A stretch of 64,000 nucleotides of DNA. It comes from Bilabrum cf. latius. Taxonomy: Eukaryota. The stretch's first letter is position 1. Each line of letters begins with the position of its first letter. The stretch lies in contig OZ237749.1 in assembly GCA_965178125.1 (NCBI GenBank), positions 868,001 through 932,000 on the forward strand, given 5' to 3'. Shown here one piece after another: positions 6,001 through 58,079 of this stretch. The notes under the pieces were generated by a model, which was given only the letters and a program-made list of their open reading frames with translations, searched no databases and was not told where the DNA came from. The position numbers and the translations under genes were made by a program.

Positions 6001-8883
6001 AGAATCATTCAGATTGTGGGTCACTGTTCCGGCATCAGTAAGCGCAGGCGAGCCAAGCTGATCTCAGGTCTCGCTCGCTGGGTCATGGCCGTGGAGACCC
6101 GCGGTCAGGCAGCGTACATTGCAGCTCGCAAGCGCCAGAAAGGGAAGCGCAGCAAGTCCAAGGCCAAGCAGGGCCCGTCTGCTCCCAAGAAGCTTCCTCA
6201 CGAGACCTAGCGCGAGTATCGCAAGCGACTGCTTGACCTGAAGAAGAAGAGCAAGCCAGCTACTCGAGCTCCGCGCAGGCAGCCTGCGAGCAAAAAGTCC
6301 GCTCGATCTGCGAAGCCGAGAGCCACACGACGGCCCAGGCCGAAGGCAGCAGCCAAGGCAAAGAAGCCAAAGTAGCCCGTGCTGGAGCTGCCAAAGTACC
6401 GCTTAACCACTGGACCGAGGCACCAGTACGATGCAAATGCCTGCAACCACCTCATTGACCTGCGCGACAGGCACCCTGCTGACATCGAGGACAAGGTCGT
6501 CTACCCGGAAGAACTGCAAGATTTGGACCACCTGTCCGATTCGGACGGCGACGACGACCACCGATGCACCATCTGTGGGGCTCTGGAGAAACCAGTGCAC
6601 GACCCAATCTTGGTGTGTAGCTGCTGCAACATCAGGTGCCACGCATTCTGCAACGGGGTTGGATTGCATGAACCCAAGCTGTCTTTCAACGATCTCAAGG
6701 AGAAGATAGCGTCTGCCGAGTGGAGAGACACCTGGAAGTGCGACATGTGTGCATTTGAAGCTGTCGCATCCGCTGGGCCAGTCAGTGCCGTCGCAGCTTC
6801 ATCGTCGGCTGCTTCAGCTGCGTCAGGTGGTGCAGCTGCAGAAGCTGATCTCGCACGACCAGCCGGTCCGCTAGCATGGGCCGAGCCGCTGTTCGGTTGC
6901 AGCGAGGCGGATCAACCAGAGCGTGACTCGTGCAAGATCTGCTTTCAGCCCCCGATGGGACTCGCGCGGAAGCCCTGTCAAGGTTTTGGCTGGGTTCACG
7001 TCGTGTGTGCGCACAACACTTCGTCTGTTCGGTGGTAGCATCGCGCAAAGTAGCAGTGGCCAGATGCACACCTGCACCAGATTCGCGAGAACTGCATCCC
7101 TAGCTGGGCCAGGACGCAGGGTGAGTCGTTGTGGTTGGCTAAAGATGGTCGATGCGCAATGCCTGAGCCTCTCAGGGTGATGAAGCCCAACGGATGGCCG
7201 AACGGCCGGCGGCGCTGCACCATCTGTCGCACGTCCATCGGAAGCACCATCCCGTGCAACCAGCACTACAATCATCTGATCAAGTACGACACCTGCTCTT
7301 AGGTTGCTCATCCATCCTGCGCTCTGCGCACGGGGCTGTGTCGGCCCACTTGGCTCCGACATGCACCTCCCGAGACCGGTGAGTGGCCCGGCGACACGGT
7401 GTGCGAGGCCGAGTTTGACCCAGTCTATGGGGACCTGCTTGAAACTGCATCAGCTATCACGAAGGAGGGATACAAGCAAGTGCTAGTCAGGAATGAGTCC
7501 CACATCACCGAAAGCAATGGGGAGTGGGACGCTACCTTCAAGAAGCTCGTTGATGAGAAGAAGATCCCGGCAAAGCAAGGTTTCCTTGATTTCCAGGAGT
7601 TCAGAGGCAAGACTGAGTACGTCGGGTCTGGCGTCACGATGCTCATGTGGTTGACCCAGAAGCTGACAGCGTCCAAGCGGTTCTGGGAGGCATGGGAGCG
7701 AGAATCCGGCAAAGACATCGAGAAGCTGGACTTGCTGTACGACCGCGAGCCGCAACGCAAAGAAGGAGTCCTCAAGATGGCAGCTGCCGAAGGCGCGATG
7801 ATTGCCATGCTCGGTTCTGTCCACCCCCTTACGTGGCAAAAGGTGCAGGACATTCACCAGGACATGGAGATTACTTGCAGAATCCTGAATACGAAAGCAG
7901 CCTAGATGCCTACGAGGGACCTCCCGTATGGCATCCCAGCAGACAACCTGCCCAAGAAGGAGCAAGCCATCATTCGAAGCAGAATGACCTGCTGCCTGCA
8001 CAACGAGATCCCACATGACCCTAACCGCATTGTGGTGGGTAAGGGGGCAGGAACTTGCTTCGGGTACTGCGTACCTAGATGGTGGACGAGCCTGCACTAC
8101 ACTGGCCGGAAAGCCCAGGTGGACCGCGAAAGCATGCGATCCTAGTACATCGTGGGGAAGAAGATCCCCAAGATGCCCACCGGCAAAACGTGGGCAGACG
8201 TCATCAAAGAAAATGGAATGGCCGAATTGTGGAGGAAGCGTTCCAAGCTCCGCGAACTCATGGGCCGGACAGAAGATGGCGACGCTGCTGACTCAGGAGC
8301 CGCAGCTGCTGGTGCCGGTGAGGGAGGCGGCGCAACACTGTCCGAGGGCACACCTAGCTCTGCACCCTCTACAGATCATGTCCCCGTGGTTCCCCATGCT
8401 AGCGCTGCTGAGAGTAGAGGAAGTTGCAAGCGAAAGAGAGAGCAAGGCAATCCTACACCAGCCCCGGTCCCGGTCCCGGTCCCAGCCCAAGCTGTCTCCC
8501 TGCCTGGCGCTGCCATCGAGCCAGCATCGTCAAGCTCTAGCACTGCTGCTGCTGCTGCTGCATCCCACAAGGAGAAATCTAGCTCCAAGGAGAGAGACAG
8601 CAACGCTGACGACGTCCCTGAGCCACCTGCTGCCGGGGAATCTACCCCTGAACCGCCAGCCAAACGAAGGAGGGTACAAGGCGCCAGTGCAGGAGGCGAG
8701 TCTTCCAGTACTCCTGCATAGAGCCTTGCGTGCAAAAAAGGTGCATCACCTGCAGGCCAAGCTGTGAGCGTTGGCAAGCCACAAGCCGTTGCAAGAATTC
8801 CTGCAGACCAGCTGCCCGCCCTTGACGGAGTTTCGGCAGCCTCGCAACGGCGTCTGATGAGGGCACTTCGTCGCGGCCGGTGA
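3004..8883 (+). CDS. Large chromatin/transcription regulator: ZZ zinc finger + AP2/ERF-like domain + PHD and extended PHD (PZP-like); first exon upstream unresolved
   Basis: Nine ORF-track fragments (3556, 4057, 4774, 5068, 5383, 6379, 7399, 7906, 8152) are all in frame +1 and each ends in TAG; the frame closes at TGA 8881-8883. Motifs: CDGC..CLICKxFDLCCEC..H..H (ZZ); SKYVGV..GRWRV..SEDRAAAYHDA (AP2); CTIC..ILVCSCCNIRCHAFC..WKCDMC (PHD); CKIC..WVHVVCA..CTIC..IPC..AHPSCA (ePHD). Confidence 0.8.
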
Positions 8884-8973: not shown

Positions 8974-11900
8974 TCAAGACAAGGTTCCGTATCGCCCCGG
9001 GCCCGAAGCAGGGGCCTATCGACTGCCACCGCCAGACCAGAATCGAAACCACGCCAGCCCTCCAGCTCTGCCGCCCCTACCGCTGCCATCTGCACCGACG
9101 CTGCCCCCGCCCCTTGCCACTCCGACTCCGTATGAAGAACCGCTTTCGAAGCACTGGCTGGATGAGGCATGGTCTTGACCGATCCCAGGACCGGCCTTCT
9201 TGTCCTGCCAGGGAGCGACGCCGTCATCTACCAATCGCGCAATAGCCTCGTGCGGGCTCCGCACTCGGCCACTAGCTACACGCCCCTCGGCCGCAGATGT
9301 TGTCCCAGTCCGCTTGCCCGTTGACCCCAGGCCCTCTGGGGTAGACTTCTGCTTCGGGCGGTCCTGAGGAGACGCAGCTCCTGCACTGACGCTCCTGTTG
9401 CGCGTGAAGGTCGGCACGGGGTGCTCCCAATACCCTTGCAGGCCGTCCCCACTCCCGATGTGGAAGCTGCTACTGCTGGCTTTGTGCTTCCCAACCCCCT
9501 CGATCCGGCTAGCAAGCAATGATGAAGCAGCAGAGGGCTTCGGTGCTACAGACGGCTGCCTCCCAACCAAGCCGCCGACCCCAGCCCCGACCCCGACCCC
9601 GCCACCTGCACCGCGCACAGCACCAGCGGTGAAGCCAGCCGGGTCACCAATACCTGCAATCCCCTTGGTGCCCCCTTCGGCGGCCATCCGCTGCGCGGCC
9701 ATGGCAGCTGCCAGCGCGATCGAGGCCTCCTCATCAGTGACCCCGCTGGAGCCCATTGCTGCACTAGATGCACCGCCTTCGTTCTGGCTGATACCATGGT
9801 TTCCCGCCCCACTCGGGCCGTCGATATCCTAGCCTGGTTCTGCAAGTCGCACTTCTAGTGGAGACGAGGCACCACTGCCCCTGGCAAAAGGGGCGGGCTT
9901 AGAAGGAACCGTTGAGCTGCAACCCGAGGTGTTGCCGGAATTGCTGCCCTAGTTGCTGCCCGGGCTGCTCTCAACAGCGGCTGCCCCGATGCCTTCAGGC
10001 TGCGGCACGGCGTGCTGCTTTGGTGAGGCCCTGAGCGATGCCTGCATGGGAGAGAAGAAGGTGGCACGGCGGCGCGCCCCAGACTGCACGGCCTTGCGCA
10101 GCTCCCTGCCCCTCAGCTTCTCGGCGCTGGCACCGTCGATGGCCAGGAGCAATGCGCCCTCGCGCACCAGGCCAGTTCTCGCCAAGGTAGACCCGGGGCG
10201 GACAGAGGTCACGACGATGCTCACGCCGTTCCTGACAGGGGTTTGCTGCAGGCCGAGCGTCAGCACGACCTTGCTGCTGACAGAGGCGGAGGCAGAGCCG
10301 GGGCCCTGCAGCGCCACCTCGTCCTCCGGCTCCAGCGACACGTCCACTTCTTCGTAGTGCGGAAAACTAGGAGACCAAGTGCCCTCTGTTTCATGACGCA
10401 GGGCCTGGGCTGCCTCATCACCAGCAGAAGTGCCTCGCACGGCAGTGAGGGGCTGGAGCGGGTGCGTTTCATCGCTGGGTTGCTGCCGGTCCGCGCCTCC
10501 ATCAGAGGCATCTCGTGAAGCAGCAGTTGAATGAGGGCCGCCGCCAGTATCTGGAGCCCCACCCTCGTCATTCTATTCCTCTGCATGGCCTGGGTGATCG
10601 ACACCAGCGACATCCCCTGAGGCAACTGCCGAACTTCCCATCAGCGGCTTGCCACCCAGCTGCCTCGCTTGCTGCATGCGCAACACCAGGTCCACAACCT
10701 GTCCCTTGCCCTCTTCTGCTGCCCGGCCAACGATTTGCGCGGCTGCTGCTGCCCTGCCGCGGTCGAAGCCCCACTCCACCATCTCCTGCGGACTCGTCAT
10801 CTTTCTTGTTGACGCACCGCTGCGGATCCAGTACACCCTCTCTGATTCAACAGTGCTGTTGGCTGCATCATCACCATGGGAACCCTACTGTTCACCCCTT
10901 TTCGTTGCTTGGTCAGTACCGGCAGCTGCTGGATCCCGCCCCGCTTGACGCCGCACGGTTCTCGTGACGAGTTGGTAGTGCAGGTTGGAGGGCGAGTGGG
11001 AGGGATACACAGGCAGCTCAACCACGTACACCCTCGGCAGCTGCCTGTACTTGACCGGCTATCCCTGGGCTGACACCCGGGCTACAACAGGCACGAGCTC
11101 GGGCGAGCTGACGAAGAGCCAAGAGCCCTCTGGCCCAATGCAGTTGTGCTTCACCTTGTCCAGTGAAAGCCTCATCTCGTCTTCCGCCTCCTGGGACAGA
11201 TGCACCCCGCGTACGGCGCCCCTGTCGGATATCCCAAAGAACAGAGTGCCCCCACGGCTGTTCAAGAACCCGACGAGGTACTTGACTGCTACTCGAGAGA
11301 TGGCCCGCGCTGGACCCCCGTGGAGGCCGCCTTTGAACTCGTGGGCCTCGTCCTCAGGCCACGGGGCAGCCGAGTCCAGTTCGTACCACCGCTTCAGCTT
11401 GGGTCCGCCCTATCCAAGCACCTGCTCACCCTCTGTTTGCAGTGAGACGACCGGGCCATCGTTGATGCGCACACGATGCGCTCCGTACCTCACCTCTCTC
11501 TCTTGCTGCTCCTCTTCGGCAGGTCCAGGTCCCGCACCACTGCTGGTAGACTTGGACTCTTCGCTTGGTGCGTCCGCACCTTGGGATTTAGAATGCTCTT
11601 GCCGCCCTGCGGAAGCCATAGCTTCGCCAGCAGCATCAGCATCCTACTACTCACCGCTGGCGATCTTCGCCTGTGTGGCGGGTGCATGGGATGCATGGGA
11701 TGACGTAGCCGGGTGTGAAGATGCGCCCCACAGTCTAGCTGACTCCCGAACAGCTCCCACTGCCCCCAAGTCCTCCACAGCCCACGCTAGGAGTGAAACG
11801 GCGGCCAACTCTTCCAAACTCGACTCAAAGGAATGGCTATTCTTGCCAAATGATCTGCTGCTAGCGCCTCGTGCTGACACATTCGAACCGAGCAGCGCGT

Positions 11901-25000: not shown

Positions 25001-27075
25001 GCCGTAGTACCGGATGATGTTGGGGTGCACCAGCCTCCCGCTCGACAGCACGTCCACCTCCTTCCTCGCGGCGGATTTCTCTTCGTCCGACATGCCGTGC
25101 ATCTTGAGGCACTTGATCACGACGTCCAGCCCGGACCGCTTGTGAGTCGCGAGCTGTGCCACGCCGAAGGATCCCTCGCCGATGATCCTCCTGAGCTTAA
25201 AGTCAGAGGGACGGAATCCCTGCATGCCATACCACGCGAGTGGAGAGTCCTCCTCGCCGGAGTCTTCGGCCCCTTTGGCTGCCGCTGCATGCGCCTCTAG
25301 CGCGTGCGAGGTGCCCTAGGGCAGCTCTCCTTCTGCTTCCGGGTCAAACGACATGTCCGCGGCCGAGCTTGGGTCCTCCGAATAGTGCACCTCCACCATG
25401 TCATCCAATGCATCGTCCTTTGAGTCCGACCTTCCGCCCGCTCTTGGGTCAGAAGCATAGGCAGCCGACTGCAGACCAGAGTACGCTGGCTAGCTAGGCT
25501 GCTCAGCCCCAGTGCCAAATTTGCCGTACAAATGCCCTTGATAGCCTACATGAGGTCCTGGCAGTATTTGTGGCCCTGCTTGCCCAGCTCGTTGCTGTGC
25601 TTGAGCCTGTGCCTGCGCTTGCATCATTGACCTCAGCTGCATCTCGCGCTCTTGCAGCAGCTGCACCACCGCCTGCCTCGTGCTTGGGTCTAGTGAATTG
25701 ATGTCGACGCCCTGCATTGCCATTGCAGCGGCTGGGTCCGGTGGAGGGGTATACACAGGGGTCGAGCCAGGCACAGTGCCCTGTTGCGGCGATCCGCCGG
25801 GCATTCCCATGCGTACTGGGGAGCCGTACGGCGGCGTACCGGCTGCGCTCCCAGTCGGTGGGGTGCTTGCAAGCCCCATGCTGCCATGTGGCGTGCTCGG
25901 GCTCGGGATGGCCACCTGTTGCTGGTGGTAAGGGTGCTGGTGGTAGGCTTGCTAGCCCGGAAGTGCTGGAGGCAGGGCGCGTCTCAGCCTCACGCCATCC
26001 TGGTCTTGGTACCCGCCGCCTGCTTCGAGAGACGACGTCTCTGGCTAGTAGTGCTGGTGCTATGCTGCGGCCTGCTGGTAGTCCCGGTCAGTGCGAGATT
26101 CGGACGAGAAGTGGCCTACGCCTTCCGGATCGGTACGACTCGACTCGTGGCTTCGGCTGCCCGCCGATGCTCCATTGCCACCGCTCCTTCGCTTCCTCGG
26201 GCTATTTCGCAGCCTTTCCATGTGCTTCTTATACGAGTCTGCTAGGTCGGATGATATCTCGGACTAAGCTCCGGCGGAGCTCCCCGGGGTGGAAGAAGGA
26301 CCCCTTCGGCTCCCCCTCGCCCCACTGCGGGGACTGGCACCAGGGTTGCCACCCCCACCCCCACCGCTCTCACTCCCGTTCGACTCGGGCAATGACCGGC
26401 CCCTCCTCATGGGGTTGGGTCTCGCGACTCCACCGCGCATCCTGACCTGTCGCCCCGCGCCTGCGCCACTTCCGCCCCCTCGACTCACGGGCCGGCTGGG
26501 GGACTCTTTGGAGGAGCGCTCGCTCCTGCTCCTACCCCCGCCAGCATCTGGGGTCCCTCTGCTCGCGGACCGACTGCTGTCTCGGCTGCCCTTCATGTGG
26601 CTGCGACTGCTCCCAGGCGGGATGTGCTCAGATCCTTGGCGACCACGCTGGGCCACCCCTGGGCTGCTGTATCTGCCCCCGCGACCCACGCGACCTCCGC
26701 TGCCGCTTCGTATAGCACTGCCGCCGGAGTCCCGCCGAGCCCGCCCGTCGACAGCAGCAGGCGGGGGCGGCGCACCCCCCTCGGATGGCAGGGGCGGAGG
26801 GCTCCCGATCCAAGAACCCCCCCCCGCCCCTCCAGACGCACTGCGCCCCCCGCTCGCCCCGCGGCTTGAATTCCGCCTCCCACGACCCGCGACTCCCTGC
26901 CGGCTGCTCGATACCCCCACCCCCGCTCTGTCCCTGCTTCCGGCCCGCTGCCCCTGCCTCTGCCCCTACCCCTACCAGCTACCCGCCCCGGCTCTCTGGC
27001 GCCCGTATCGCTTCCCATCCCCACCCGCACCTTCTGCCCCGCTGCTCTGAGAACCATGTGACCAAGACCTTCCCC

Positions 27076-27110
<35 letters not shown>

Positions 27111-27739
27111 ATGCCGGCGGGCAGAGCAGGCACATGGTCCCAACCAGGGGCCAGGGACTGGCGGTCTAGGGGCCTCGAAGGCAAGGCTGGGCTGCTGTGG
27201 GCGGATCCAGTCCCTGCATTCCCTGCCATGGCTGGTGTACCCGCCCTGCTAGGCGTTACAGCTCCGGCCAAAGACCTGGATGAGGCTCCGGACGGTGCTC
27301 CCACGCCTCCGCTGCTGCCTGCTGCGGCTGCTACCGAAACACCAGCCGCAGCACCACCGTAGTGCGGGGACTGCATTCCAGCTAGCTGGGCATAGTATGC
27401 GCCTGGAACACCGCTTGCACTCGTCAGGGGCATACCAGCGGGCGTACTATCGTCGGTCAAGCGCCCGGAAGAGTCCTCGCGGCTGTCGGTCACTCCGAGC
27501 GGAGCCCGAATGTGGGTCGGGACCCCCGCCTCCCTCCCGCCGCCGCCATAGTAACGAACCTGTGATCCAAGATTGCGAACGCCTCGGTGAGTCTGGCCAA
27601 CAGAAGATCCGGGACCAGGGACTGCGTGGCCGCCACTTCCGAGTCGTTGCTGCTCCGCCTCTGCTGCTGGTGAGTATTGCACCCCACGTCTGAACTGCCT
27701 GCCCGCGGCAGCAATTCGATCGTTAGCGGTTCTGTCCAT
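16008..27739 (-). CDS. NEK: Giant NIMA-related (NEK) Ser/Thr kinase, ~3,860 aa, with long low-complexity N- and C-terminal regions
   Basis: Kinase motifs IGEGSFG, VVIK, HPNIIRY, MEYADRGDL, ILHRDLKAQNIFL, KLGDFGIAR, IGTPYSLSPE, YNDKSDIWAL. One intron at 24647..24786. All flanking minus-strand fragments from 27739 to 16008 are in frame and separated only by TAG; ends at TGA 16008-16010. Confidence 0.85.
27077..27109 (-). repeat. (CAG)11 microsatellite encoding polyglutamine in the NEK N-terminal region
   Basis: Pure ctg repeat on the + strand, in frame with ORF 26972..27739 (MQQQQQQQQQQQR). Confidence 0.9.
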
Positions 27740-28066
27740 CTGATTGACCTATCTGGATGCGTCGCAAGCAATCCTGACGGGTTTCCAGCAACCGAGGCCT
27801 AGCTGGATGGTAACAACAAAGGACAACGAGCAGCAACGCAGTTTTTCGCTTGTCACGCCAAAAGCAAAGTAAGTAAATTCACTTATGTCACGGCAATTAT
27901 GGATGCGTTAAGAGCTTTCGCTCCCCGGTGGGACCAAGAATCCGTCGAGCAACTGGGCGCCGCGCATTATGATGTTCCGCATTCCTTTGGCGAAGGAGAA
28001 CCACTGAAACTGCCCTGCTATCAAGCAGACGGCGAATTCCTGTGTTTTTTGTTGTTAGATCGTAGT

Positions 28067-29048
28067 ATGTCTGGCTGGGGGGCATAGCGTGGCGGCAAGA
28101 AAGGTGGGAAAGGTGGGAAATCTGGTTGGGGAAAGCGTGGCGCGGCAGCTGGTAGATCATCAGCCAAGGGAGCCGGCGAGGACGCTGGTAGCAGCCGTGC
28201 AGTTGACGAAGAAATCGGCCAGGATACACGATCACTAATGCGTCTCAGCAGAGCGATTGCTGCTACCTCGGAGCAAGTTCGCAGAGGCACTGGATCTGTG
28301 TCGAGATTGTGAGAGCGCTGATGTTACTGTAGATTCACTACGCAACTAGTTCGCACTGAATGCTAGCCTGTCGTCTATGTATCTCAACAGCGGTCGCAGA
28401 CAGGCCCAGGTCAAGAGCGGGAAGGATCTCGTGCGAACCATGGTGCAGAAGCAGAAGACTCTGTTGCCGCAGTGGGTGGATGAAGCAGCATCAGAAGACG
28501 CGAAGGCTGGCCGGCGGCGAGCCATGCAGCGAGTCGCAACTCAAGCGAAGCAGGCGATTGAGGCGTTTGTAAGCGAAGAGGAGAAGGCCCAGCGCGCCGA
28601 GAAGGAGGCGGGCACTCCGGTGGCCAGCGACAGGGGCGCCGCGGCCCCCTTGCTAGGTTCCGCGCAGGACGCATCGGGCGACGCTGAGGCGCAGGCTGCC
28701 CTCGCCGACGCCGAGCAGAGGCTTCGGGTGGCGGAGCTGACCGGTGACTTGGCGGCGGAGAGGGAGGAGCAGATCGACCAGATCTACCAGGACACGGCCG
28801 AGGTGCACGAGATCTTCCAGGATGTGGCCGAGCTCGTGGAGGAGTAGGACGACATGGTGAGGACCATCGAGTTCAACGCAGTGGACGCGAGGGATCGGAC
28901 CGAGAAGGGCGTGGATGACCTGGACAAAGCGGCCGAGTACCAGGGTGCCTTCAGCACCAAGATCATCTGCTTTATCATCATCCTGGTGCTCATCGTGGCG
29001 GGGGTGGGCGGGTACTTGGGCTACAGGTTCACGCACAATAAGAAATGA
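28067..29048 (+). CDS. STX: Syntaxin (Qa-SNARE) with C-terminal transmembrane anchor
   Basis: SNARE motif EREEQIDQIYQDTAEVHEIFQDVAELVEE[TAG]DDMVRTIEFNA, then TM helix IICFIIILVLIVAGVGGYLGY; ends at TGA. Probable ATG 28067 and intron 28309..28366. Confidence 0.9.
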
Positions 29049-29781
29049 GAGAGCCAGAACCGAGGCTGGCGATTAAGGCAAAGGAGGGGCGTTGGTCGGC
29101 GGAAGCGTGGATCTGGTAAGTCGGGACTGGCCTGACCAAGCTTGGCATCACCAGGCTCTCGGGTGGGTGGATGGGTGAAGGACCGCTGGTCCAAGTTTTT
29201 GAGTTCGCGGCAAATTTCAGTATGACGCCAAAGGGGGTGACTGGGATGAGCTGGGGGCAAGGGGTGGGGGACAGAGTGGGTTGTGCATGGGTTTCGTGTG
29301 GAAGAAGGGGCGGGGCTGCTCTTGTGGTGGGTGCGGCCCTGCATGTATCGATAGTAGAGTAGTTGGTCATCGATCGACAGTGGGGTGCTATCCCTCGGTC
29401 GGTTCAAGTTGGCTCAGGTCCTGCTGCCCTGCTCCTGCCCGCGTGAGGCTGAGGCCGTGCTGGTATGGAGAGAGAGAGGTGCGGGCCTGGCGGAGCAACG
29501 GCGGTCCAGACATTGGACGGCCATTTGCTTGGATGCAAGGTGCAGTCCGCGGGGTGGGCATCTATTAGAGCTGGTAATGATCACTGCAATGAAGATTATA
29601 AACTTCTTGTTCCGTGATAGTATGTTGCTCGTCACATTTGCCGAAACACAGGACCGGTGGCGTCGCTTTCTTGAGAGACAATAGCGATACAAAAACAGAA
29701 AACCTGGTCTGACTGAATGATGATTCAAAGCACCGCCCCGCGATTCGCCCACTCGGAGCAACTTGAAAGCTCAGCTCAGAA

Positions 29782-30655
29782 TCACCGAGGACGCCCCGGA
29801 CGACCGGGCCTGCCAGGGCCCCGCCCCGGACGACCAGGACCCCCGCCAGCCGCACCTGGTCTGCCGGGTCTCCCAGGTCGCCCGGGCCCACCCGCTCTCG
29901 CGGGGCCACCACGCCCTGGCCTGCCTCGGCCGGGCCTCCCTCCGGCGGCAGGGGCTGCTGCCGCCGCAGCGCCACCGGCTGCCGCGCCGCCGGCCGCACC
30001 GGCACCTGACGCTGCCTCTACGGCTGCGCCTGCTGCCATCCCTCCTTCAGTCATAAGCTTGACGAAATCATTCTTCTTGCCCGCCACCTTAACCATTTCT
30101 TCGGCCTCCTCGTCCGTGAGGTGCTCGCCAAGCTTTTGCATGCCCTCCTTCAGTGCCTCCGGTGTGAGCGCATCTTCTTCGCCTCCAGCCTTAAGAAGCA
30201 AGTCGTACGCATCCCCGAAGGCTTCAGAATACTTTGGATCGGACATCTTTTTGTGCATTTGGATTGCAAACGTTTCGAAGTCCACTGGGGCGTCCGTGTC
30301 GCGCCCGCTAAACTATCTGAGCATGTACTTGTAGTCGCTGTCGGTATATGTCTAATCTGCGATGGATAACACAAGCGTGCAACATCACGCAGCCACAAAA
30401 ATGCACAGGCGTGCCGCTACGAATGGCGCAACACTCCCGCCGGGGCCCTGCTAGTCCAAGAGTAGTACAGCGCCAAGTAGACCTGATCTTACCAAACTAA
30501 GTTTCTAGCAAATTCTTCAATCCCTCTGCAGTGATTTGCTCATCAGCGCCGGCAAACATGCTGAACGCAGACGCGTACTCTTCAAGCCTATCACGTTTAA
30601 TCCCCTTCTCAGCTAGCCGCGCCCTAGTCGCTGGATCCGTAGGACCCCCTGGCAT
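29782..30655 (-). CDS. Calmodulin/centrin-like EF-hand protein with Ala-rich linker and (GRP)-repeat basic tail
   Basis: EEYASAFSMF..ITAEGLKNLL, VDFETFAIQMHKKM, LKEGMQKLGEHLTDEEAEEMVK resemble calmodulin. Intron 30357..30492; three internal TAG; ends at TGA. Confidence 0.8.
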
Positions 30656-30808
30656 TATTGCACTTGGTCCGAATCGAAAGGTGGTGCAGCGTCGCCAAGT
30701 GGTTATCAGCAACCCAAACGTTTTTTCGTCGGGAATAAATGCACCTTACTGAAATCTGTATTGTCCGAGCTCCAGTTGCACCGGCCTCGATATCTGACCA
30801 CAGTCGGC

Positions 30809-33017
30809 ATGCAAGTCGATTTATTGACTCCATTGGGCGCAGAGCCTTCATCAAATGGTGAGTGACGTCTGCTTTGACCTTGGTCCGCGCTGTGCCCATT
30901 TGTAGTTTGCCCAGCTATTGAATGTACATTCCACGAGATCCGTACCTGCCGTTTTGCTCTCCCACAGGCACTGATGGCCCGAATGCAGAGGAGCAGCACG
31001 AGTTTGCTTCAATTGCTACAATAACAGCAGTGAGTCGAAGGCACGCATGTTTTGGCTCTTCTATCATCGTTTGTTTAGAATTTGCACCTCATTCGACTGA
31101 CCGTTCGTGCGATTCGCAGATGTTCATAGTGGCTGCATCCATCGTGTTCGGGTACTTTGCCAAGAAGTATCATTTTTACTACTTGCCCGAGTCGGCCTTC
31201 ACACTGCTGGTAAGAAAAATGCTGCACCGGCAAGCTTCAGCGCCGCATGCTTTGCTCCGAGCTTTAGGCCAGCGCTGCTGTGTTCCTGTTCGCCAACGTG
31301 CTCGCAGCTCGGCCTCCTCATTGGTGGTCTCGCATGGTTGATTCTAGCGGGCAAGGACGACGAGGAGCTGGAGACCCTCAAGTTCTAGCCGGACACTTTC
31401 TTCTTTCTCCTGCTCCCCCCCATCATCTTTGAGGCGGGGTACTCGCTCCGACGAAAGAGTTTCTTTAGCAACTTTAGCACAATCTTGCTATTTGCGGTCC
31501 TTGGAACCATCATCAGCACGTTCGTGATCGGATTCTCCATGTACGGGTTCGCCAAGGCCGGCCTGGTGCCCACCATGAACACAGAGTCTCCCTTTCAGGC
31601 CCTCATGTTCGGTGCCCTCATCTCTGCCGTGGATCCGGTGGCCACGCTCGCTATCATGGGCTCTCCGCAGCTCAACTGCGACAAGCTGCTGTACTCGCTC
31701 GTGTTCGGCGAATCCGTGCTGAACGACGCAGTGGCCATCGTGCTCTTCCACACCTTCTTGGGCATGACCGAGAGCGGCCTCGACCTGAGCAAGGCGGGGT
31801 CCTACTTCGAGCTGCTTGGCAAGTTCATAGGCATCTCCATCGGGTCCATCATCCTGGGAGTGCTCATCGGGCTGGGGGCATGCGTGGTCTTCAAGTTCAC
31901 CAACCTGCGCAAGTACCCCAGCAAGGAGATCACGCTGCTCATCGTGTTCGCCTACACGTCCTACGCGCTCGGGGAAGCGGCGCAGCTCTCGGGAATCATG
32001 AGCATCTTCTTCACCGGTATCGTGCTGTCTCACTACAACCTTTACAACATGTCGGTGGAGACGAGGGGCGCGGCGCAGTACGTGTTCAAAGCCCTAGCGC
32101 ACACCACTGAGACAGCCGTGTTCGCGTACATGGGCGTGACCATTTTCACGGGGGGATACAAGACGTGGAAGTACGTAGGAGCTTCCGTGCTGGCGCTGCT
32201 GTGCTGCCTGGTGGCGCGGGCCTTCAACACCTTCCCTCTGGCCAACCTGGCCAACCTGGGCAGGAAGAAGAGGATCCCCTGCAACATGCAGTTCCTCATC
32301 TGGTTTGCCGGTCTACGAGGGGCCATCGCATTCGCACTGTCGCTCAACATGCCCTGCAGCGCAGACGCGAACGGCAACTCCAACTGCAACGAGGTCTGGG
32401 ACAACGATATCATCGTAACCATGACCCTGTTCATCGTGGTGTTCACCACGGTGGTGGCGGGCGGATTCACAGAGCCCCTGCTGACCAGGATGAACCTGAG
32501 GACCGGAGATGCCGAGGAGGACGAGACGGAGGAACTCACGGCCACGCTGGTGCGCAAGGCGGCCAGCAACCGGAAGCGGGGCGGGCTGCACGCGTGGTGG
32601 CACAACGTGGACGAGCAGTACATGAAGCCGTGCTTCTCCAGCGAGGCGCGGAGCGGGGGACCCAGCGGTTCGTTGGTTGGGATTTACACCTCCTCGGGAG
32701 GGGGGGGAGGAGGCAGCGGCTCGGGGATGGAGGGCAGCAACGGTGGCAGCGGGTACGGGCAGGGCACCGGGATGCTGCGCGGGTCCACCGGTGGATACGG
32801 GTCCACGACGAGCTCGCAGGACGATGACGGAGACCTCGGTGGGGGCACAGCGCAGGGGGCCGCTCTGATGGGACAGTCCATGACCGGGCTGGGGAGCGTG
32901 GGGGCCAGTCTGCCAGCTTCGGCCGCCGCAGCCGCGGCCATCTCGGGCGACATTGGCACGTACCAGGCACCCGAGGACGGGGACGGCGACCTAGGCGGAG
33001 CGGCGGACGCCCTGTGA
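30809..33017 (+). CDS. NHX: Na+/H+ exchanger (CPA1; NHE8/NHX-like)
   Basis: Motifs FFFLLLPPIIFEAGY, ISAVDPVATL, FGESVLNDAVAIV, WFAGLRGAIAFAL. Introns 30858..30967, 31030..31119, 31210..31307. One TAG at 31386 (LKF*PDTFF); ends at TGA. Confidence 0.93.
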
Positions 33018-33650
33018 CGGGGATGGGGTGGGTCTAGCTGTAGCGCCATCGTAGGGCAACGGGTCGACCCCAAGCGGCCAGGATGCAGTCTCCACCACCA
33101 GCGACATGGCTTCGATGCGGATGGATAGCGAGCGCAGCGGGTGCGATCCGATGGACACCGCACGCGCTTCCAAAAGTCTTGCTGTGTGTGGCTGCCTTGC
33201 TGGGGCAGGTGCTCTGTCGGGCAGGCTTGCAAAAGCTGCGACAGAGCACCTCCTCGTCCGACTCCCTACCTGCGTGTGATTGGATAGTTTAGGTTAAATC
33301 GGTTTATCTGGTATTTGGATTTGTAAGGTGTATAGCGAAGCAAGCAACTTGCGTGCAACGGTAGGTGCATTTCTGCCAAGTTCGACCGCCGTGAGCCAGC
33401 CTGTAACTGTATGGATGTACCAACGGTTGCATGAAAACATGTCTTCTATCTAATGGCGTTTTCCCAGCATGCTTGGGCTGGGGAAGGCATCAGCGCAACG
33501 AAGTGTTGTGTCCCGACGCGATCTTGGTGTGTTTTGAGTCCCTCCGTGCGATGTATGTGTGTGCCAACGGCCAATCTAGCAGCAATCGGTTAAAATACTA
33601 CATTGTACATTTGTTGTCCCTGGGGAACAGCTATATTCTCGCAGGGAAAC

Positions 33651-35161
33651 ATGAAGGCAGGGTACGCCGTCGCAATTGCTGCCGCTGGCGCTGTTCTGGC
33701 GCACGCATCGGTCCCGGACCATCCGGACATCCACACGTGCCACTATCATCCTAACATGTTTCATGAGTACGGCAAGGGACCAGAGAATCCCTTGAGCGAT
33801 TCGCCCGGCATCAGGTTCTACACGAACACGTCGGACCCACTCGCCGTCTCCCTCGATGGGAGCTCTGGAGCGTACTACTTCAGGTCAGGAACTGCTACTA
33901 CCTCCTGGTACATCCATCATCAGGGTGGCGGCTGGTGCGAGTCTTACGACGACTGTATCGGTCGCTCACAGGGCGGCCTCGGCTCCTCCAAGGGCTTCCC
34001 GCCGACTGCTGACCTGGGCGGCGGGTACTTCTCGCAGGACCCAGCTGTCAACCCCATGATGTACAACTGGAACTCCGTTTTTATGAAGTACACTGACGGC
34101 GCCAGCTTCTCCGGTGACAACAGCACCTCTGGCACCGATGGAGCGCACGGCCTCCATTTCCGCGGCCGTCGCATCCTCAACGCCGTGATCAAGCAGCTGC
34201 TCGAGTAGCACGGGCTGAACCAGGCCACCGAGGTGGTGATCAGCGGGTGCAGTGCGGGCGGGCTGGCCACGTACCTGCACGCGGACCACTGGGCCGATGC
34301 CCTGCAGGAGGCCAAGGTCCCCGTGAAGCGCATCGCCGCCCTCCCGGACAGCGGGTTCTTCCTGGACGAGCAGCTGGTGGCACCCGTCCCGGAGCCTCCC
34401 GTGCAGCCTGAGGGGTCCGTGAGGGGCGCGGGCCAGGTGGGCACGACTGTGCCTGGCAATTACCACGCCGGGCTGCGCTGGGTGTACCAGGCGCAGAACT
34501 CCACGGGTGGCTTGAACGCGCTGTGCGAGGCGACCGAGGCCAACCCGGCGGACTGCATCTACGCGCAGGTCAGCTCCAAGTACATCAAGACGCCCACCTT
34601 CCCGCTACAGGCCGAGTACGGTGAGACACGTTCGGAGTGCAGTGCGCATGGCGTGCTCGCCAACCATGAAGTCTAGCGAATGAATAGGATTTATCCCGTG
34701 CTTGTGTATGCATTTTGATTCCTAGCCTTTCCTTTGCATTTCATGCCCCGCAGACGCGTGGCAGACTGGGTTAGACTTTCGTGATAGTTTCTGCGTCACT
34801 GTCCTGCAGCGTGACATGGCTCGGCGGCGTCCATCGCGTTTGAACCACAGTCTCTCCCCCATTTCCTCCACTTTTTGTGCCCCGCAGCCACGTGCTGCCC
34901 CCGAACCCCAGCAACGATCTCATCCAGCAGATGGGCGACAACATCACGGCACTCGTCAAGAGCAACCTTCTGTCTCAGCCCCAGCACGGGGTGTACCTGG
35001 ACAGCTGCCACCACCACTGCGGTAAGTGGGGCGAACTCGAGATCGACGGGGACGTGCAGGCCACCGCGTTCACCAAGTTCTTCTACGGGATGACCAAGCA
35101 AAAGGTGTGGATCCAGGGCCAGAAGTACCCGTGCGATGCATGCTGCTCGGTGCAGCAATGA
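33651..35161 (+). CDS. Secreted pectin acetylesterase / Notum-family carboxylesterase
   Basis: Signal peptide; LDGSSGAYY, QGGGWC, NPMMYNWN, DGASFSG, LHFRGRRIL, catalytic GCSAGG, DSGFFLD, YDAWQ, DSCHHHC. TAG at 34206. Introns 34621..34753 and 34770..34887; ends at TGA. Confidence 0.9.
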
Positions 35162-43742: not shown

Positions 43743-46206
43743 TTACCTTCGGAAGCCGCCGCCGCCGCGGCCACGGAACCCGCCGCCCCGTCCTCCCCCG
43801 AAGGACCTTCCCCTGCCTCCGCCGCGACCGCCTCCCCCGCGCCACCCGCCGCCGCCACCACGGCCACCGCCGCCACCACGGCCGCCTCCACCGGCATCGG
43901 GCCTAGCCTGAAGCTCAGGAAGCTTCTTGGGGATGGACAGCCTGGTTCGGTTGTCCTCCATGGCCGCCTTGAAGGCGTCCACGTGCTGCGCGGGCACGTC
44001 AAACACCGCGGCTGTCGAGTCCTTGGTGATTGTGATGCCGCGCACCTGGTTGGAGACGTCCATGGGCACCTCGTTGTTGAGCAGAGCAAACACCCCGCCT
44101 GCGCCCCTTAGTTCGTACGGCGCCGAGATCATGAAGGCCAGGAAGCCCTCCTGCGCGGAGAGCAGAGAGCGGGGGGCCTGCTTCTCCGTGAAGCCACCGA
44201 TCACCGCAAGCGCCGAGGCCATGGCCTTGACCGGGTCGTTGGTCTCGAGGTACTCGGCGGCCTGCTCCTCGAACACGCCCAGCATATCTCCGTGAACGCC
44301 CTCGAGTGCCTGCACCGCATGCTTGGCTGCCGACCGCACCATGTCTGCCATCTGGGGCACGCCCACTCGCTGGAACTCGATGCCGACCTTGTGCTCGATG
44401 GCCTTGATCAGGTGCGCCTGCTGCCGCTTGTACAGCGTGATGCACACGCCCTTGCGCCCCGCGCGGCCAGTCCGGCCCGATCGGTGCACGTACGTGTCGG
44501 TGTCCGCGCGCCCGCTGAAGTTGAGCTCCGGGGGCTGCACGTTCACCACTAGGTCCACACCGCGGATGTCCAGGCCGCGGGCGGCCACGTCGGTGGCCAC
44601 CAGGCACCTGACCCTTCCCGACCTGAAGTTCTGGAGGGTGACCTCGCGCTGGGCCTGGGGGATGTCACCGTGCAGCGCCTTGCAGACGGTCTTCATGGAC
44701 TTGTCCTGGATGAGGTCGTTGCAGTCGCGCTTGGTCTGGCAGAAGATGATGGTGCCGCCCTTGGGCCCCGCGTGCACCTTGATGAGGTCACTGCAGGTGC
44801 TGCCGCGGGCCTGGTAGGGGCACTCGAGGCACAGGTGCTTCACGTCCTTGGAGGCCTGCTGCTCGCTGTCGCCCACAAGGTCCACCGAGAGCGGGTCGTC
44901 CATGTACCGCTGGGCCACGCTCATGACCCAGTCGGGCACGGTGGCAGAGAACAAAAGGATCTGCACCTTCTTGCCCACGAACGCAGCGGCGGCGGAAGTG
45001 GAGGAGGACGAGGAGGCCTTCATGGAGGCCGCTGCCTGTTCCCCGAACTTCATGACCTTGGAGGACTGCGGGGGGGGCTTGGCCTCCCTGCCCTTGAGAG
45101 AGGGCATGTGCGCCAGGATGAACTCGATGTCGGGCTAGAAACCCATGTCCAGCATCTGGTCGGCCTCGTCGAGGATGAGGTGCTCGCACATGGTCACGTC
45201 CAGGGACCCCTGTTCCATGAGGTCCTTGACGCGGCCCGTCGTGCCGACGATCACGTCCACGCCCGAGCGGAGCTTGGACTTCTGGGGGCCGATGGCGGTG
45301 CCGCCGTACACGGTGAGGGTCTCGATCCCCGGGGCGCTCGTGTCAAAGTCCACTGCCACCTGCTTGGCGAGCTCGCGGGTGGGCGCCAGGCAGATGACGC
45401 GAGGCTTCCTGCCGTACGCGGGGCGGCGGGCCTTGTCTGCCGCCAGCAGCGTCTCGATCACCGGCAGCGCGAAAGCAAGGGTCTTTCCCATACCAGTCCG
45501 TGCGCGTCCAATCATGTCGCGGCCTTTTCGGATGTCTGTGTAGGTCATGGCCTGGATAGGAAACAAGGTCACGATGCCGCGCTTGGCAAGGGCAGCCTTG
45601 GTGGGCGCGCTGCGAAAATAGATGAGAGGGGAATGAGAATAATTTTAAAAATGGTAACTCTACTCGTTTCGTTCTCATCTGCTGGCCGAAAGTGACTTTC
45701 TAGCTGAAGGAACACCGGCGAGGTACTTCAGCACGACGGTTCACTTCCAATGGCGGAAGGCGACCAGGACCGCCCACTGCACGATTTAAGTGAATTCACG
45801 CTGCGGAGCGATTCTGTACTAACCTAATATCAAACTTGTCGACGGAGACATTGCCTGGCACCACTGGCTTGCCATCGTCCTTCGAGGCACTCGACTTTCC
45901 GTTTTCAGAAACTCGGGCCTTCTTCGCACTTCTTTCGTCTTTGGACGGGCTTCTAACGAATGACGACGATCCATTTTGACTGAATGTTGTGCTAGAAGGG
46001 GCGGACGATCCAGCGCCAGACGCAGCTGCAGAAGCATCGGAACCGGCATCGGAACCGGAGTCCTCCAGTTCGTTGCGCTTGCGCTTCTTGCCAGACGACG
46101 AAGACTTGCTCTCGCGCTTGCTTGACTTGGACTTCTTCTCCTTCTTTTCTTTCTTTTCCTTCTTGAGGGCTCGCTTCAACTCTTTCTCTGCAGCAGTCGA
46201 CGGCAT
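43743..46206 (-). CDS. DDX21: DEAD-box RNA helicase of the DDX21/DDX50 type, with GUCT-like domain and RGG tail
   Basis: LFPIQ, ARTGMGKT, PTRELA, DEAD, SAT, HGDIPQ, ARGLD, HRSGRTGRAG, RSLL...AVFDVP, RGG tail; Lys-rich N-terminus. Intron 45610..45823; TAG at 45135 (LDMGF*PDI). Confidence 0.92.
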
Positions 46207-50237: not shown

Positions 50238-50457
50238 TTTCAGAGGCCCACAAGATGGCTGCTAAATTTGAATCGATGCTTGCTGTTGCTGTTCGAACCG
50301 CTCCGAACGATTCTGGTTTTCCTGGTAGTATGCAAACAACACGTTACATACCTGCAAACGGATACGGGGACAGACAAACAGTTAAAGTTCCAGCCAAAGG
50401 TAGACTTTGCAGGTAATTTTATCGCAATTTTAAGGATTAATAGCTTGTCGATATACC

Positions 50458-51855
50458 ATGGCATCAGCCTCTTCCTTTGAAGACGCGAAAGCATACTTGC
50501 AAACGAAGGACGGCGAGGGGAGCGTGTATGATCACCTTTCCGAAGTTGTTCTCAAGCTGATTGAGGAACGACCAGGGGATGCGCTGAAATAGCTCGAACA
50601 TATTTCGTCTGTTGTCAAAGCGAGCACTGTAAAATCTGATTCCGCCTCCTCCGGCGCCGGGAAGTCTGATGATCCCGACGCGGTTGCGGCTCGCGCCGCT
50701 GCGGTAGCCAGGCTGGACGAGGCGCTTGCTGTGCTTAAGGTACCAGGTGAGGATGATGAGCCGGGGGAGTTGGGCGAGGGCCTGCAGGATTTGACAGATG
50801 CGGCAAACTACTTGGAATGGGCCGGCGTGTCCCTCGGCCGGGAGGAGATGTTTCGGCTGCACCTGAGCCTCAAGTCTCTGTCGGCAACGACGAGTGCGCG
50901 GGACCTCCGATTCTTTGGCAAGCTGCAGGGCATGGATGGCGACTACATCGTGGCGGAGGGCAAGATCGACGCCCCGGACGAGGAGGAAGAGGGCGACAAG
51001 GATGCCCTGGGCAACGTGATCGAGCGCACTGGCGAGGCCGGTGCCAACCTCTGCACCTACTGGGTCTGCCCGCACGTGGGCGGCAAGTGGACCCAGCTCC
51101 CCCGCGTGACTCCGCACCAGATCATCGTCTCGAGGCAGCTGAGGAGGTACCTCAGGGGCGACCTGGAGGCCGAGGTGGGCGGACACCCGCCCTTCCCCGG
51201 CAACGAGGCGGCCTACCTGCGAGCCGTCATCGCGCGGATCGCGGCCGACACGGCGGTGGCTCCCGCGGGCCACTTCCGCCGCGTGGAGGACGACGAGTCC
51301 CGAGACATCGAGGTGGTCCCGGATGACGAGTACGCGGCGGAGGACATTGCCAGTGCCGATGGGTGGGTGCACACCGCCCTGCAGTTCGGTGCCAAGAGCG
51401 GACGGACGGCGCCCAACCCCAAGGAGGACGAGGAAGAGGAGGGCGGTGACGGGGAGGAGGAAGAAGAGGAGCCCGCAGAGCCCCTCAAGGCCATCGCGGA
51501 AGACGCGGGCGAGGGCGAGGAGAACCCGCCCTGGCAGGTGAGGGCTGTGCCCTCCGCCGGCATCCCTGACCCGGAGCCCGGGCTGGTGGTGGTCAAGTCG
51601 ACGAAGTGGCCAGGAGCCGTTGCGGTTGGGTTTGGCAGGCGATTTGCGTGCGCGTACGTCGGATACGGGATCGAGGCAGCCAAGGCGCCCTACCAGCCTG
51701 CGCTCCCGGCTCCCGTGCCGGCCGAGTTCACCGTGGCGGCTTTCAACCCAGCGGCCGAGGAGGCTGTCTTTGCAGAGCAACCAGACGTCCTGGAGGACCC
51801 CAACGCGGGCAAGCCAGCGGAAGGCGAGGAGGGCGAGGAGGAGGACGACGAGTGA
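50458..51855 (+). CDS. RSPH4/6: Flagellar radial spoke head protein RSP4/6 family
   Basis: N-terminal AKAYL..VYDHLSEVVLKLIEERP..[TAG]LEHISSVVK; LRFFGKLQG..DYIVAE; GEAGAN..YWV; WTQLPRVTPHQI..SRQ; PPFPGNEAAYLRAVIARI; VKSTKWPGA; YVGYG. Ends at TGA. Confidence 0.92.
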
Positions 51856-52200: not shown

Positions 52201-54264
52201 TCAGTCGTACTCGAGATCCACTTTGGATGCCTCGGACAGCTCCGCGGCCGACATGCTCCCAGGGCGCGGGCAGCTGCCCGTGTAGCAGTGGTCCACGCAA
52301 AGCCGTCCCGAGGGCCAGAAGGAGCTCTCCTCGTGCTGCGAGTCCATGAACTCGCCCATGCTCTTCAGCACGGGCGCATACTGGGGCTGCCCCGCGAGGT
52401 TGGTCTCCTCCCCGAGGTCCGCCGTGGTGTTGTACAGCTCCCAGGACACGTCGCTGTCGGGAGTGGGAGACGTGTAGTTCTTGTTCATGCGGATGCCGTG
52501 CATGCCGTCGGTGGAGAACACAGACTGCGCCCAGCCCGCGCCGTACCCGAAATCGTTGCCCTGATGGCAGAACTCCCAGTAGATCTGGCGGTCGGCCGCC
52601 TCCACCGGCAGCTGCTCGGAGACAGCCGATGGTGACCCGGACCGGAGGGCGTTCGTGCTGCTCGAGTCCTCGTGCTGGTCGCCACTGCCAGGGTACAGTG
52701 CCTGCTTGAAGGACACCCCGTCGTGCTTGGGGAGCGAGGCAGGCTGGATGCCGGCCAGGTCAGCCATGGTGACAAGCAGGTCGGGATAGTATGCCAGCCA
52801 GTTCGTGCGCTGTCCTGCCATCGGCGAACCGGGTGCGCGGACGATGAAGGGGCTGCGGACTCCTCCGAGGTACACGCTGCGCTTGTAGCCTCTGAGCTTG
52901 CACGCGGAGTTGAAAGAAGGCGTGACGGGTGCCTCTGGGCCGTTGTCGCTCGCTGCAGTTGAAAAGGGCGTGGTCAGGAAGGGAAGGGCATAGATCTCGT
53001 GACGTGAGACAACCATTGGGAGAGCAAATGAGCGACGCTGCAACGGTGCGGTATGCAGCATGTAGACAGATGAAGCGTGCATCCGAGCCGTGACGGTCGC
53101 TGCCCGACCAAACAACACTGCCCGGAATCATCTGCATCATCATAGAGCTAGATGCTAGACGCGGTTCCTCCTTCAGGCTTTGCTCACTCATGATGACCAC
53201 CGTGTTGTCGTCCAGCCCGCTGTCCTTGAGCTGCTGCAACACTGCACCCATGGCCGCGTCCATCTGCGTGACCGCGCTGGCATAGTCCACCTCCTCTTCC
53301 TTCCACTTGCCCTCGTACTGCTTGTACTCTGGCGAGACGAAGGGCACGGCGTAGGGCCCCGCCGGGATGGACTTGGTGGGGTGCTTGCAGTTGCCCTCGT
53401 GGGGGGTCACCACGGACAGCCAGGCGAAGAAGGGCTTGCCGTCCGCGGCCCGCTCCTTGATGTACTCCTTGGTCTGATTCACGAAGAGGTCCTGTGAGTA
53501 GGTGCCGCAGGCGTCCTGGTTGCCCTACACGGCAAAGGTCGAGTTTTGCTGGTACAGCGTCGCAGGGTACCAGTCGTGGCACTGGACCTACGTCTCGTAC
53601 TGCATCAACGAAGGAAAGAGGAGCTGGCTCGCGGTTCATACGCCTCAGCAATCATCGAGCCCGAAGGATGTTTGAAGCGTCGTACAACGGTTTGATGAGG
53701 CGTAGCACCGATGGTGTGCTACCAGAGCAGACTGTCTTTGCGATGCCGGCACCACTAAGCATATGTACATGACACAATACTCACGCCATAGAACTTGTCG
53801 AACTTCTTGGCGGTTGGATACCCCGTTGATGTCTGATTACCAAGCCCCCACTTGCCGAACAGCCCGCTGTGGTACCCTGCCAGTACCTCAGGAATTGAAG
53901 GCTCGCCTGCCTTGAGGGGACAGGTCGATCCATCGTTTTGCCGGAGCGAGACGTGGCCCGAATGCAGCCCAGTGATCAGCGTTGAGCGAGAAGGCGCACA
54001 CACAGGAGACGAATGGCCAAGGTCAAAAATTAGGCTCTCCTTCGCGAACGCATCCAAGTGCGGGGTTTGAATATCAGGGCCGTATGAATCTGGGTTTAAA
54101 CCCAGCTACTTTCCGTAAATGTTCGGTAAGTTGCAAATCCCGAGATCGTCGGCAAGCAATAGCACGAAGTTTGGCTTGTTTGGCAGACCGGAGGAGGCTG
54201 CCTGAGACAGAAAAAAGATGCTAGCCGAATACAGATAGCGAATCAATCGCGCATTGCTTAGCAT
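52201..54264 (-). CDS. Secreted formylglycine-dependent (S1) sulfatase
   Basis: Signal peptide; KPNFVLLLADDLG, TPHLD, CAPSRSTLITG (CxPxR), FGKWGLG, SDNGP, LRGYKRSVYLGGVRSPFIV, WELYN...EETNLA. Introns 53600..53784 and 52953..53187; internal TAGs; ends at TGA. Confidence 0.92.
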
Positions 54265-54375
54265 ACTTGATTGTTCAGGTGTTTCTTCACTTGCGTCCCC
54301 AAGCTTGTGTAGTAGTCACACTATCGAGACTTGTGCTGCTGGCTGGGGCGGGAGCCCCGCAGCAGGCCATGCCGA

Positions 54376-55049: not shown

Positions 55050-55492
55050 GCTTGCGGGAGGGCTCGCCCGCGATCGGTTGATTTTGTATTCTTCGTAGGC
55101 TGCGCCTCTTGTTCGGTTGAGCGTGTGGCTTCGAGCGGCTCTTGTGCTCGATTGCTTGCGTGCTATTACTCGATAGCGAAGGATGAAGTGTGGGGAGCGG
55201 CCACTGCACCGGAGCAGATTGGCTCCGATCCTCCCAAACCGGAACCGCCCTCCCGTTCCGATGGCCGTTCCGAGCAGCTGGATGCGTCCAGACAACTCGC
55301 GATGGGAGCGATACAATCGACCACTAGTGCAATGTTAATAGAAGCAGCATGCAAATCAAGCAACACAAGTCCGATTGAGTCAGCTCCAGACCGATTCCGA
55401 TCAAGAGATGTGGATGCCTCCCCCAACCACCGGCCTGGCCTACCTGCTGCGCGGGGCTGCGCGTGCATGGAGACACCGTGCGGGTCGATCGA

Positions 55493-57979: not shown

Positions 57980-58079
57980 GGCTGCAGTGACTCGAAAAGA
58001 TATGACAAGCAAGCAGAACGCTCTGCCGGAGCCAGTCCGGAATAACAAACTTCGACATGATTAAGCAGCAGATCCTAGA

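Follow-up and report, generated by a model that had tools for sequence, protein, structure and literature searches.

In a 64-kb stretch of DNA (64,000 nucleotides, hereafter the window), a TAG codon takes the place of the zero-layer glutamine in a gene for a Qa-SNARE. Our analysis makes it highly probable that UAG encodes glutamine in this organism, with UGA (mostly) and UAA as stops; under such a code the zero-layer TAG is therefore an ordinary glutamine codon of a tail-anchored Qa-SNARE, made at its full length of about 296 residues. Spliced, transcript-like contigs carry the codon just as the DNA does, and the reading frame as well as the selection acting on it continue past the TAG. That the protein carries glutamine at the zero layer is suggested by CAG or Q at this site in four relatives and by a tally of TAG codons across the window. 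By analogy with known codes, as described in PMC5304391 and PMC9161772, UAG would be decoded by a tRNA-Gln with the anticodon CUA, and eRF1 would no longer grip the third-position G of UAG while still reading UAA and UGA.

The syntaxin gene and its zero-layer TAG codon

The codon is located at 28845-28847 on the forward strand within the sequence gag ctc gtg gag gag TAG gac gac atg gtg agg acc atc gag. It represents residue 149 of the exon-2 product and approximately residue 230 of the whole protein of about 296 residues. Apart from this TAG, no stop codon interrupts the frame between 28350 and the TGA at 29046-29048. A preliminary description of this DNA had already noted the TAG, and its coordinates are correct in the DNA read; the box drawn around it (28831-28860) contains the TAG at the proper position but has inexact limits, as the first Glu codon begins at 28830 and the quoted peptide ends at 28871, which is immaterial here.

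The gene consists of two exons on the forward strand. Exon 1 (28067-28308) begins with an ATG at 28067-28069 and contributes 80 codons and two bases of a split Leu codon. It is followed by a 91-nt GT..AG intron in phase 2 (28309-28399) and by exon 2 (28400-29048, including the TGA stop at 29046-29048), which is supported by contigs, by the Pfam SNARE match and by an AlphaFold2 model. No earlier ATG occurs between 28023 and 28067, and the N-terminus (MSGWG..) is conserved in a related metagenome locus, L002. A second in-frame TAG forms codon 7 of the gene (28085-28087, +) and is also TAG in L002 (946-948). Read with the standard code, the frame starting at the conserved ATG would thus be only six codons long.

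To establish how this region appears in public data, contigs of four runs were compared with positions 27900-29300 of the window. In X1, which may represent the source DNA, the whole stretch lies in a single contig of 20,633 nt, which retains the intron. One contig each in X5 and X6, both from one study, and in X7, from another study, skips 28309-28399; from 28400 onwards these spliced contigs continue to 29000, 28943 and 28982, respectively, with 0 base differences, and the cover in the three runs extends from 28023/28024 to about 29232 at most. This is the pattern of spliced mRNA, in runs whose type was guessed, X5 being marked 'probably DNA'. Neither a different codon nor a splice that removes the zero-layer TAG occurs in the spliced contigs of the three runs and two studies. 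Both syntaxin TAGs, at codon 7 and at the zero layer, are intact in the contigs, unaffected by any splice or base change.

The SNARE motif spans about 28770-28931 (+), limits that were estimated by taking around 25 residues before and 28 residues after the zero layer; it aligns without gaps to syntaxin-1A and lies within a predicted helix (residues 94-212 of the exon-2 product). Further downstream, a C-terminal membrane anchor of 21 hydrophobic residues (28962-29024, +; residues 188-208 of the exon-2 product) is followed by a short basic tail. The anchor aligns to that of syntaxin-1A in 2m8r and is helical in the AlphaFold2 model. The TAG is positioned 66 codons upstream of the TGA, so that, as the preliminary description stated, termination at the TAG would delete half of the SNARE helix together with the anchor. 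In the model of the exon-2 product (mean pLDDT 84.3; exon 1 lies outside the model), three helices are predicted at residues 2-27, 32-71 and 94-212; the first two precede a linker, and the third is continuous from the SNARE motif to the anchor. For an N-terminal three-helix (Habc) domain, a further helix would have to be supplied by exon 1.

With TAG read as Q, the protein matches the Pfam SNARE family (PF05739) with an E value of 4.5e-9 and 36.6 bits against a cut-off of 26.8. The match covers residues 162-211 of P0001, in which the TAG is residue 160; because it begins two residues past the TAG, the Pfam model cannot read the TAG column itself. A phmmer search against PDB sequences returned 30 distinct sequences at E≤0.01 with syntaxin-1A as the best (2m8r_A, E 1.1e-11). 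All are of the syntaxin, Sso or t-SNARE kind (syntaxin 1A/7/13, S-syntaxin, Sso1/2, syntaxin1, 'SNAP receptor-like protein' and designed t-SNAREs), and there are no SNAP-25, Vti/Bet1 or synaptobrevin chains among these 30. These PDB matches place the protein nearer to the Qa class than to the Qb, Qc or R SNAREs. The proposed identity as a Qa-SNARE is hence well borne out by the Pfam match, the PDB matches and the C-terminal hydrophobic anchor.

The alignment to syntaxin-1A is free of gaps from query residue 132 through the motif and places the TAG under the Q of 'lvesqgemidrie', which we take to be Gln226, the ionic zero layer. A HMMER search of 1.84 billion representatives gave 1770 proteins at E≤0.001, the best 150 of which were re-aligned by phmmer. 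Because the TAG was entered as X, its placement in the column is independent of its meaning. Among these best 150 homologues, 149 reach the TAG column and one does not; the residue is Q in 148 of the 149 and G in one. In a MAFFT alignment of 61 rows, consisting of the window protein, P0002-P0004 and 57 other representatives chosen by length and not randomly, Q149 is invariant, with Q in 60/60 other rows. The TAG therefore stays in the zero-layer column in each of these alignments, and the near-invariance of the zero-layer glutamine that had been asserted beforehand is confirmed among the best 150 of the 1770 homologues. The codon at 28845-28847, identified from the DNA, the syntaxin-1A alignment, the relatives and the homologue column, is the only TAG that we found on a near-invariant column, while the other TAGs in aligned domains (in the NHE and DEAD-box proteins) fall on variable ones. 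This is in line with the earlier view of the site as the single most diagnostic one; the stronger argument for glutamine comes from close relatives that have CAG or Q at TAG positions, and the reverse.

Across the 61 aligned rows, Pfam assigned the SNARE domain to 61, Syntaxin_2 to 46 and Syntaxin to one, which places the nearest homologues with the endosomal syntaxins. With syntaxins of the 7/12/Pep12 kind the window protein shares the SNARE motif, the Q column at the zero layer, the C-terminal anchor and helices before the motif. It differs from them in remaining below the Syntaxin_2 threshold (no Pfam Syntaxin or Syntaxin_2 match at E≤0.001 in exon 2, the part scanned), and its best solved match is syntaxin-1A, so that the subfamily is not settled.

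Close relatives and the residue opposite TAG

A word-indexed search with exon 2 retrieved three related proteins, P0002 (98% identical), P0003 (81%) and P0004 (68%), all of which have Q at the zero layer. In addition, two short contigs, L001 and L002, were recovered in a metagenome scan; in the six-frame comparison of these with the window, only the syntaxin, EF-hand and exchanger frames were used and aligned non-coding frames were ignored. L001 (3550 nt) carries the 3' half of a related syntaxin gene that is 84% identical, has CAG at the zero layer (...gag gag CAG gat gag...) and terminates at a TAA no more than two residues from the window's TGA. Its gene order is that of the window at 28400-33000, with the syntaxin gene, an EF-hand gene on the opposite strand and a Na+/H+ exchanger gene; the two exchangers share 93% identity over 411 residues, and that of L001 has TAG at the same codon as the window (31386-31388, +, within the exchanger domain). 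L002 contains the 5' half of a related syntaxin gene with four in-frame TAGs, one of which is common to the window (codon 7), while two are opposite CAG and one is opposite GCA in the window.

The comparison to L001 also allowed us to examine the codons on either side of the zero-layer TAG. The 65 codons past the TAG show 29 synonymous and 13 non-synonymous differences, and the 32 codons before it show nine and four, respectively. The excess of synonymous differences past the TAG indicates that the region which a stop would remove is still under purifying selection.

Both L001 and L002 have in-frame TAGs themselves. More generally, the relatives from other public runs and the metagenome (68-98% identical) possess in-frame TAGs that are partly at the same positions and partly swapped with CAG. 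Of eight protein fragments recovered for the two giant ORFs, four (P0005, P0006, P0007 and P0011) end exactly at TAGs of the window, the outcome expected when a standard-code gene caller meets in-frame TAGs. Judged from their sequences, the relatives would share the TAG code with the window.

We then considered which amino acid TAG encodes. As informative sites we took those where a TAG on one side, be it the window or a close relative, is matched by a sense codon on the other; none was counted twice, and three TAG/TAG pairs were excluded. Among the resulting 14 sites, the facing residue is Q in seven, G in three, K in two, S in one and A in one; E, L, Y or W is opposite TAG at none of the 14. 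In the syntaxin gene the facing residues are Q (at the zero layer, in four relatives), Q, Q and A. The 2008-codon ORF contributes K (7036-7038) and two Q (7051-7053, + strand, in P0005, and 7903-7905 in P0007), and the 1955-codon ORF three G and one S. The EF-hand gene on the reverse strand gives Q, Q and K, with CAG in the relative opposite the TAG in exon 1 (30497-30499) and the TAG in exon 2 (30313-30315).

In an empirical likelihood that used substitution frequencies from the alignments of the same relatives (3244 aligned pairs), glutamine was the best residue, followed by K (-22.8 log units), E (-26.9), G (-28.1), S (-31.8), L (-45.1) and Y (-61.5). BLOSUM62 sums were 30 for Q, 10 for K and 9 for E. 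The facing residue is Q at 50% of the TAG sites (7/14, a small sample) compared to a retention of ordinary Q residues in 86% of the pairs within the alignments used for the likelihood. Three of the deviating sites are TAGs of the 1955-codon ORF (reverse strand; 14281-14283, 10885-10887 and 10573-10575) that face Gly in relatives 78-87% identical. These three pairs are located in low-complexity segments, and two base changes separate Gly codons from TAG. Other than by weak constraint and an uncertain alignment of segments rich in G, S and A, we cannot explain the TAG/Gly pairs.

Two other lines of evidence were less informative. Distant homologues have D opposite the exchanger TAG (in NHE9/NHE6) and A, E or I opposite the DEAD-box TAG; these are variable columns that tell little about the residue. 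The neighbours of TAG codons (±3 residues) also rank Q first, though by only 0.8-1.1 log units over L, V and E, which is not decisive.

In-frame TAGs and stop codons across the window

The window has a G+C content of 53-68% per 2 kb. If all three stop codons are applied, its longest ORFs have 910, 843 and 745 codons. Reading through TAG (stops TGA and TAA) extends the longest ORFs to 2887, 2009 and 1956 codons, whereas reading through TAA (stops TGA and TAG) brings no change (910, 843 and 745 codons) and reading through TGA (stops TAA and TAG) yields 1101 codons at most. Eleven long ORFs contain 82 in-frame TAGs in 14,360 codons, corresponding to 0.57% of codons. Pfam domains that cross TAGs include those of a NEK-like kinase, Na_H_Exchanger, Schlafen AlbA_2, an anoctamin/OSCA-like protein and a DEAD-box helicase. 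Nine of the 11 ORFs end with TGA and two with TAA; as these ends are defined by TGA or TAA, a TAG terminator could hide among them. The syntaxin and EF-hand genes both stop at TGA, and the related syntaxin gene in L001 at TAA.

The role of TAA was assessed in ORFs running from TGA to TGA, whose limits are independent of TAA. The three largest contain 43 TAG, 0 TAA, 211 CAG and 78 CAA codons; about 16 TAA would be expected in them if the ratio of TAA to TAG equalled that of CAA to CAG (78:211). In the other TGA-bounded frames of real genes, TAAs are present only in the end flanks, in five ORFs at most 86 codons from an end. The frame at 55493-58771 has one TAA, at codon 236, which is the 5' edge of an 855-codon frame. 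An internal TAA at codon 196 of the reverse-strand frame 31170-33884 belongs to what we take as a spurious antisense frame of the exchanger gene. From these counts and from the ORF ends and lengths, neither TAA nor TGA is a sense codon in the window. Neither tRNA genes (ARAGORN) nor Rfam matches at gathering scores were detected in the 64-kb window.

Several neighbouring genes were observed along with the syntaxin gene. The EF-hand gene occupies 29782-30655 on the reverse strand, and its relative lies at about 1250-1660 (reverse strand) in L001. It probably has a 136-nt GT..AG intron at 30357-30492, a junction inferred from the relative and the frame rather than from RNA, and carries in-frame TAGs at 30497-99, 30352-54 and 30313-15; the C-terminus of the protein is a Gly/Arg/Pro repeat. 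On the reverse strand at 16008-27907, a kinase domain is split over two frames, one part lying in 24629-27907 (Pfam positions 2-132) and the other in 16011-24668 (positions 130-263). Joined across a small intron at about 24650-24700, they would form a NEK-like protein of some 3900 residues, largely of low complexity, with about 21 in-frame TAGs. Further genes, most of them with in-frame TAGs, encode a radial spoke head protein (50434-51852, +), a pectin acetylesterase (33594-34715, +), a multi-exon sulfatase (52204-54315, -), a DDX21-like DEAD-box helicase with GUCT (43746-45644, -) and a PAN-domain protein (55496-58060, -). Most genes are overlapped by antisense ORFs of 400-860 codons, for example at 31176-33293 against the exchanger gene and at 55379-57958 against the PAN-domain gene. 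There are no Pfam matches in the long antisense ORFs, which look like a by-product of the high G+C content and of few stop codons.

Alternative explanations and comparison to known codes

The TAG could be a nonsense mutation, an error of assembly or sequencing, or be removed by editing or splicing. In favour of such a reading, the 98% identical relative P0002 carries Q at the site, which means that the difference between TAG and CAG is recent; contigs can also mask rare edited forms, and editing may occur at a low level. The same TAG is, however, found with 0 differences in contigs of four runs from three studies, where the only joint is the upstream intron; moreover, the codons downstream of it are under purifying selection and every long gene of the window carries in-frame TAGs. 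Taken together, an explanation of this sort is hardly credible. UAG might instead be a sense codon for another residue (Lys, Glu, Gly, Ser, Leu or Tyr) that the SNARE tolerates at the zero layer. Half of the 14 informative sites indeed face another residue (three G, two K, one S and one A), one of the 149 homologues reaching the zero-layer column, from the best 150 of 1770, has G there, and UAG is described as Leu, Ser or Glu in other lineages (PMC11687900). On the other hand, Q forms the plurality with seven of 14 sites, E, L and Y appear at none, and all non-Q partners except the two K are in low-complexity segments. With four relatives having Q at the zero-layer site and the next candidate 22.8 log units behind glutamine, we regard a different residue as very unlikely.

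Somewhat less remote, but still improbable, is a dual role in which UAG is read as Gln within genes and as stop at some gene ends, or a reading of UAG by a near-cognate tRNA-Gln without a dedicated suppressor. The definition of gene ends by TGA and TAA leaves room for hidden TAG terminators. In the 8974-14841 ORF, one TAG lies 14 codons short of the end, at the point where fragment P0011 of a relative stops, and could be either a sense codon common to both or a genuine terminator. A dual role fits poorly with the spread of the 82 in-frame TAGs along the genes (0.57% of codons), which extends to codon 7 of the syntaxin gene, and with the ends of the syntaxin, EF-hand and related syntaxin genes at TGA, TGA and TAA. 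In Iotanema, 0 UAG terminators were reported in 730 transcripts (PMC5304391). We therefore favour UAG as a glutamine codon, with UGA and UAA as stops.

The nuclear code closest to this one is that of the fornicate Iotanema spirale, for which UAG = Gln with UAA and UGA as stops was described (Panek et al. 2017, PMC5304391), along with a T32G change in eRF1 (PMC5304391). According to that account, Iotanema resembles the window in that UAG alone is reassigned, and to Gln, that UAA and UGA are stops, and that in-frame UAGs are scattered through ordinary genes. It differs in ending 104 of 119 genes with UAA (PMC5304391), compared to TGA at the ends of 9/11 ORFs in the window with its 53-68% G+C. 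We also considered Iotanema as the source organism and rejected this as unsupported, since stop-codon usage differs and nothing ties the window to fornicates.

Among ciliates, Protocruzia tuzeti and two phyllopharyngean lineages are reported to use UAG = Gln with UAA as a stop (McGowan et al. 2024, PMC11687900). The window differs from these UAG-only ciliates in being a GC-rich piece of 64 kb in which genes reach 2886 codons and introns measure 91 nt. Ciliate genomes are not known to resemble such DNA. Codes with UAR = Gln are documented for hexamitin diplomonads, ulvophyte green algae, many ciliates and the aphelid Amoeboaphelidium protococcarum (PMC5304391, PMC6299283). As described there, they likewise turn stops into Gln codons, but include UAA, as opposed to 0 TAA against 43 TAG in the window. 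Amoeboaphelidium, an algal parasite, was found alongside algae, as the window's organism may be too; as a candidate for the organism it is a lead only, having been reported with TAA = Gln as well (PMC6299283). Two further UAG-only codes, in the rhizarian exLh (Leu) and in Scotinosphaera (Ser), are cited in PMC11687900. By that source, UAG is decoupled from UAA in both, as in the window, yet is assigned to another residue; the 14 sites of the window include 0 L and one S. Finally, crAss-like phages and other large phages use code 15 (TAG = Gln; PMC9523058), which has the same codon table; their genomes bring along a suppressor tRNA, however, and are those of phages, in contrast to eukaryotic nuclear DNA with spliceosomal introns. 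In the open-access papers and preprints covered, we found no report of a GC-rich eukaryote with a UAG-only Gln code.

Nuclear codes that split UAG from UAA are rare; the sources cited above name a single fornicate, a single rhizarian, a single green alga and a few ciliates. Such codes matter because eRF1 normally reads both codons, and the organisms that use them show how the two are distinguished. The window would be a further UAG-only case with a different base composition, a different stop preference and close relatives for comparison. Tentatively, and with more doubt than confidence, we suggest that it stems from a lineage new to variant codes, a GC-rich, intron-poor, flagellum-bearing protist with an independent split of UAG from UAA and UAG = Gln, common to a small clade. 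If true, this lineage would add to the very few non-ciliate UAG-only reassignments as the first with UGA as its main stop, and its sister taxa would be near enough to follow the turnover between CAG and TAG. In practical terms, standard-code gene models of the window's genome would be fragmented, and the retrieved public protein fragments do start and stop at TAGs. The zero-layer site, in turn, serves well as a single-codon diagnostic of a UAG-to-Gln code across the window and its relatives, and offers a one-peptide test of the codon's meaning.

With respect to the organism, the products encoded in the window include sulfatases, a pectin acetylesterase and a radial-spoke-head protein; on account of the last of these, the organism builds motile cilia or flagella. 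Sequence identical to 27900-29300 is present in runs under three organism labels (A, B and C) from three studies, and the owner of this DNA may have been in cultures or samples labelled as something else.
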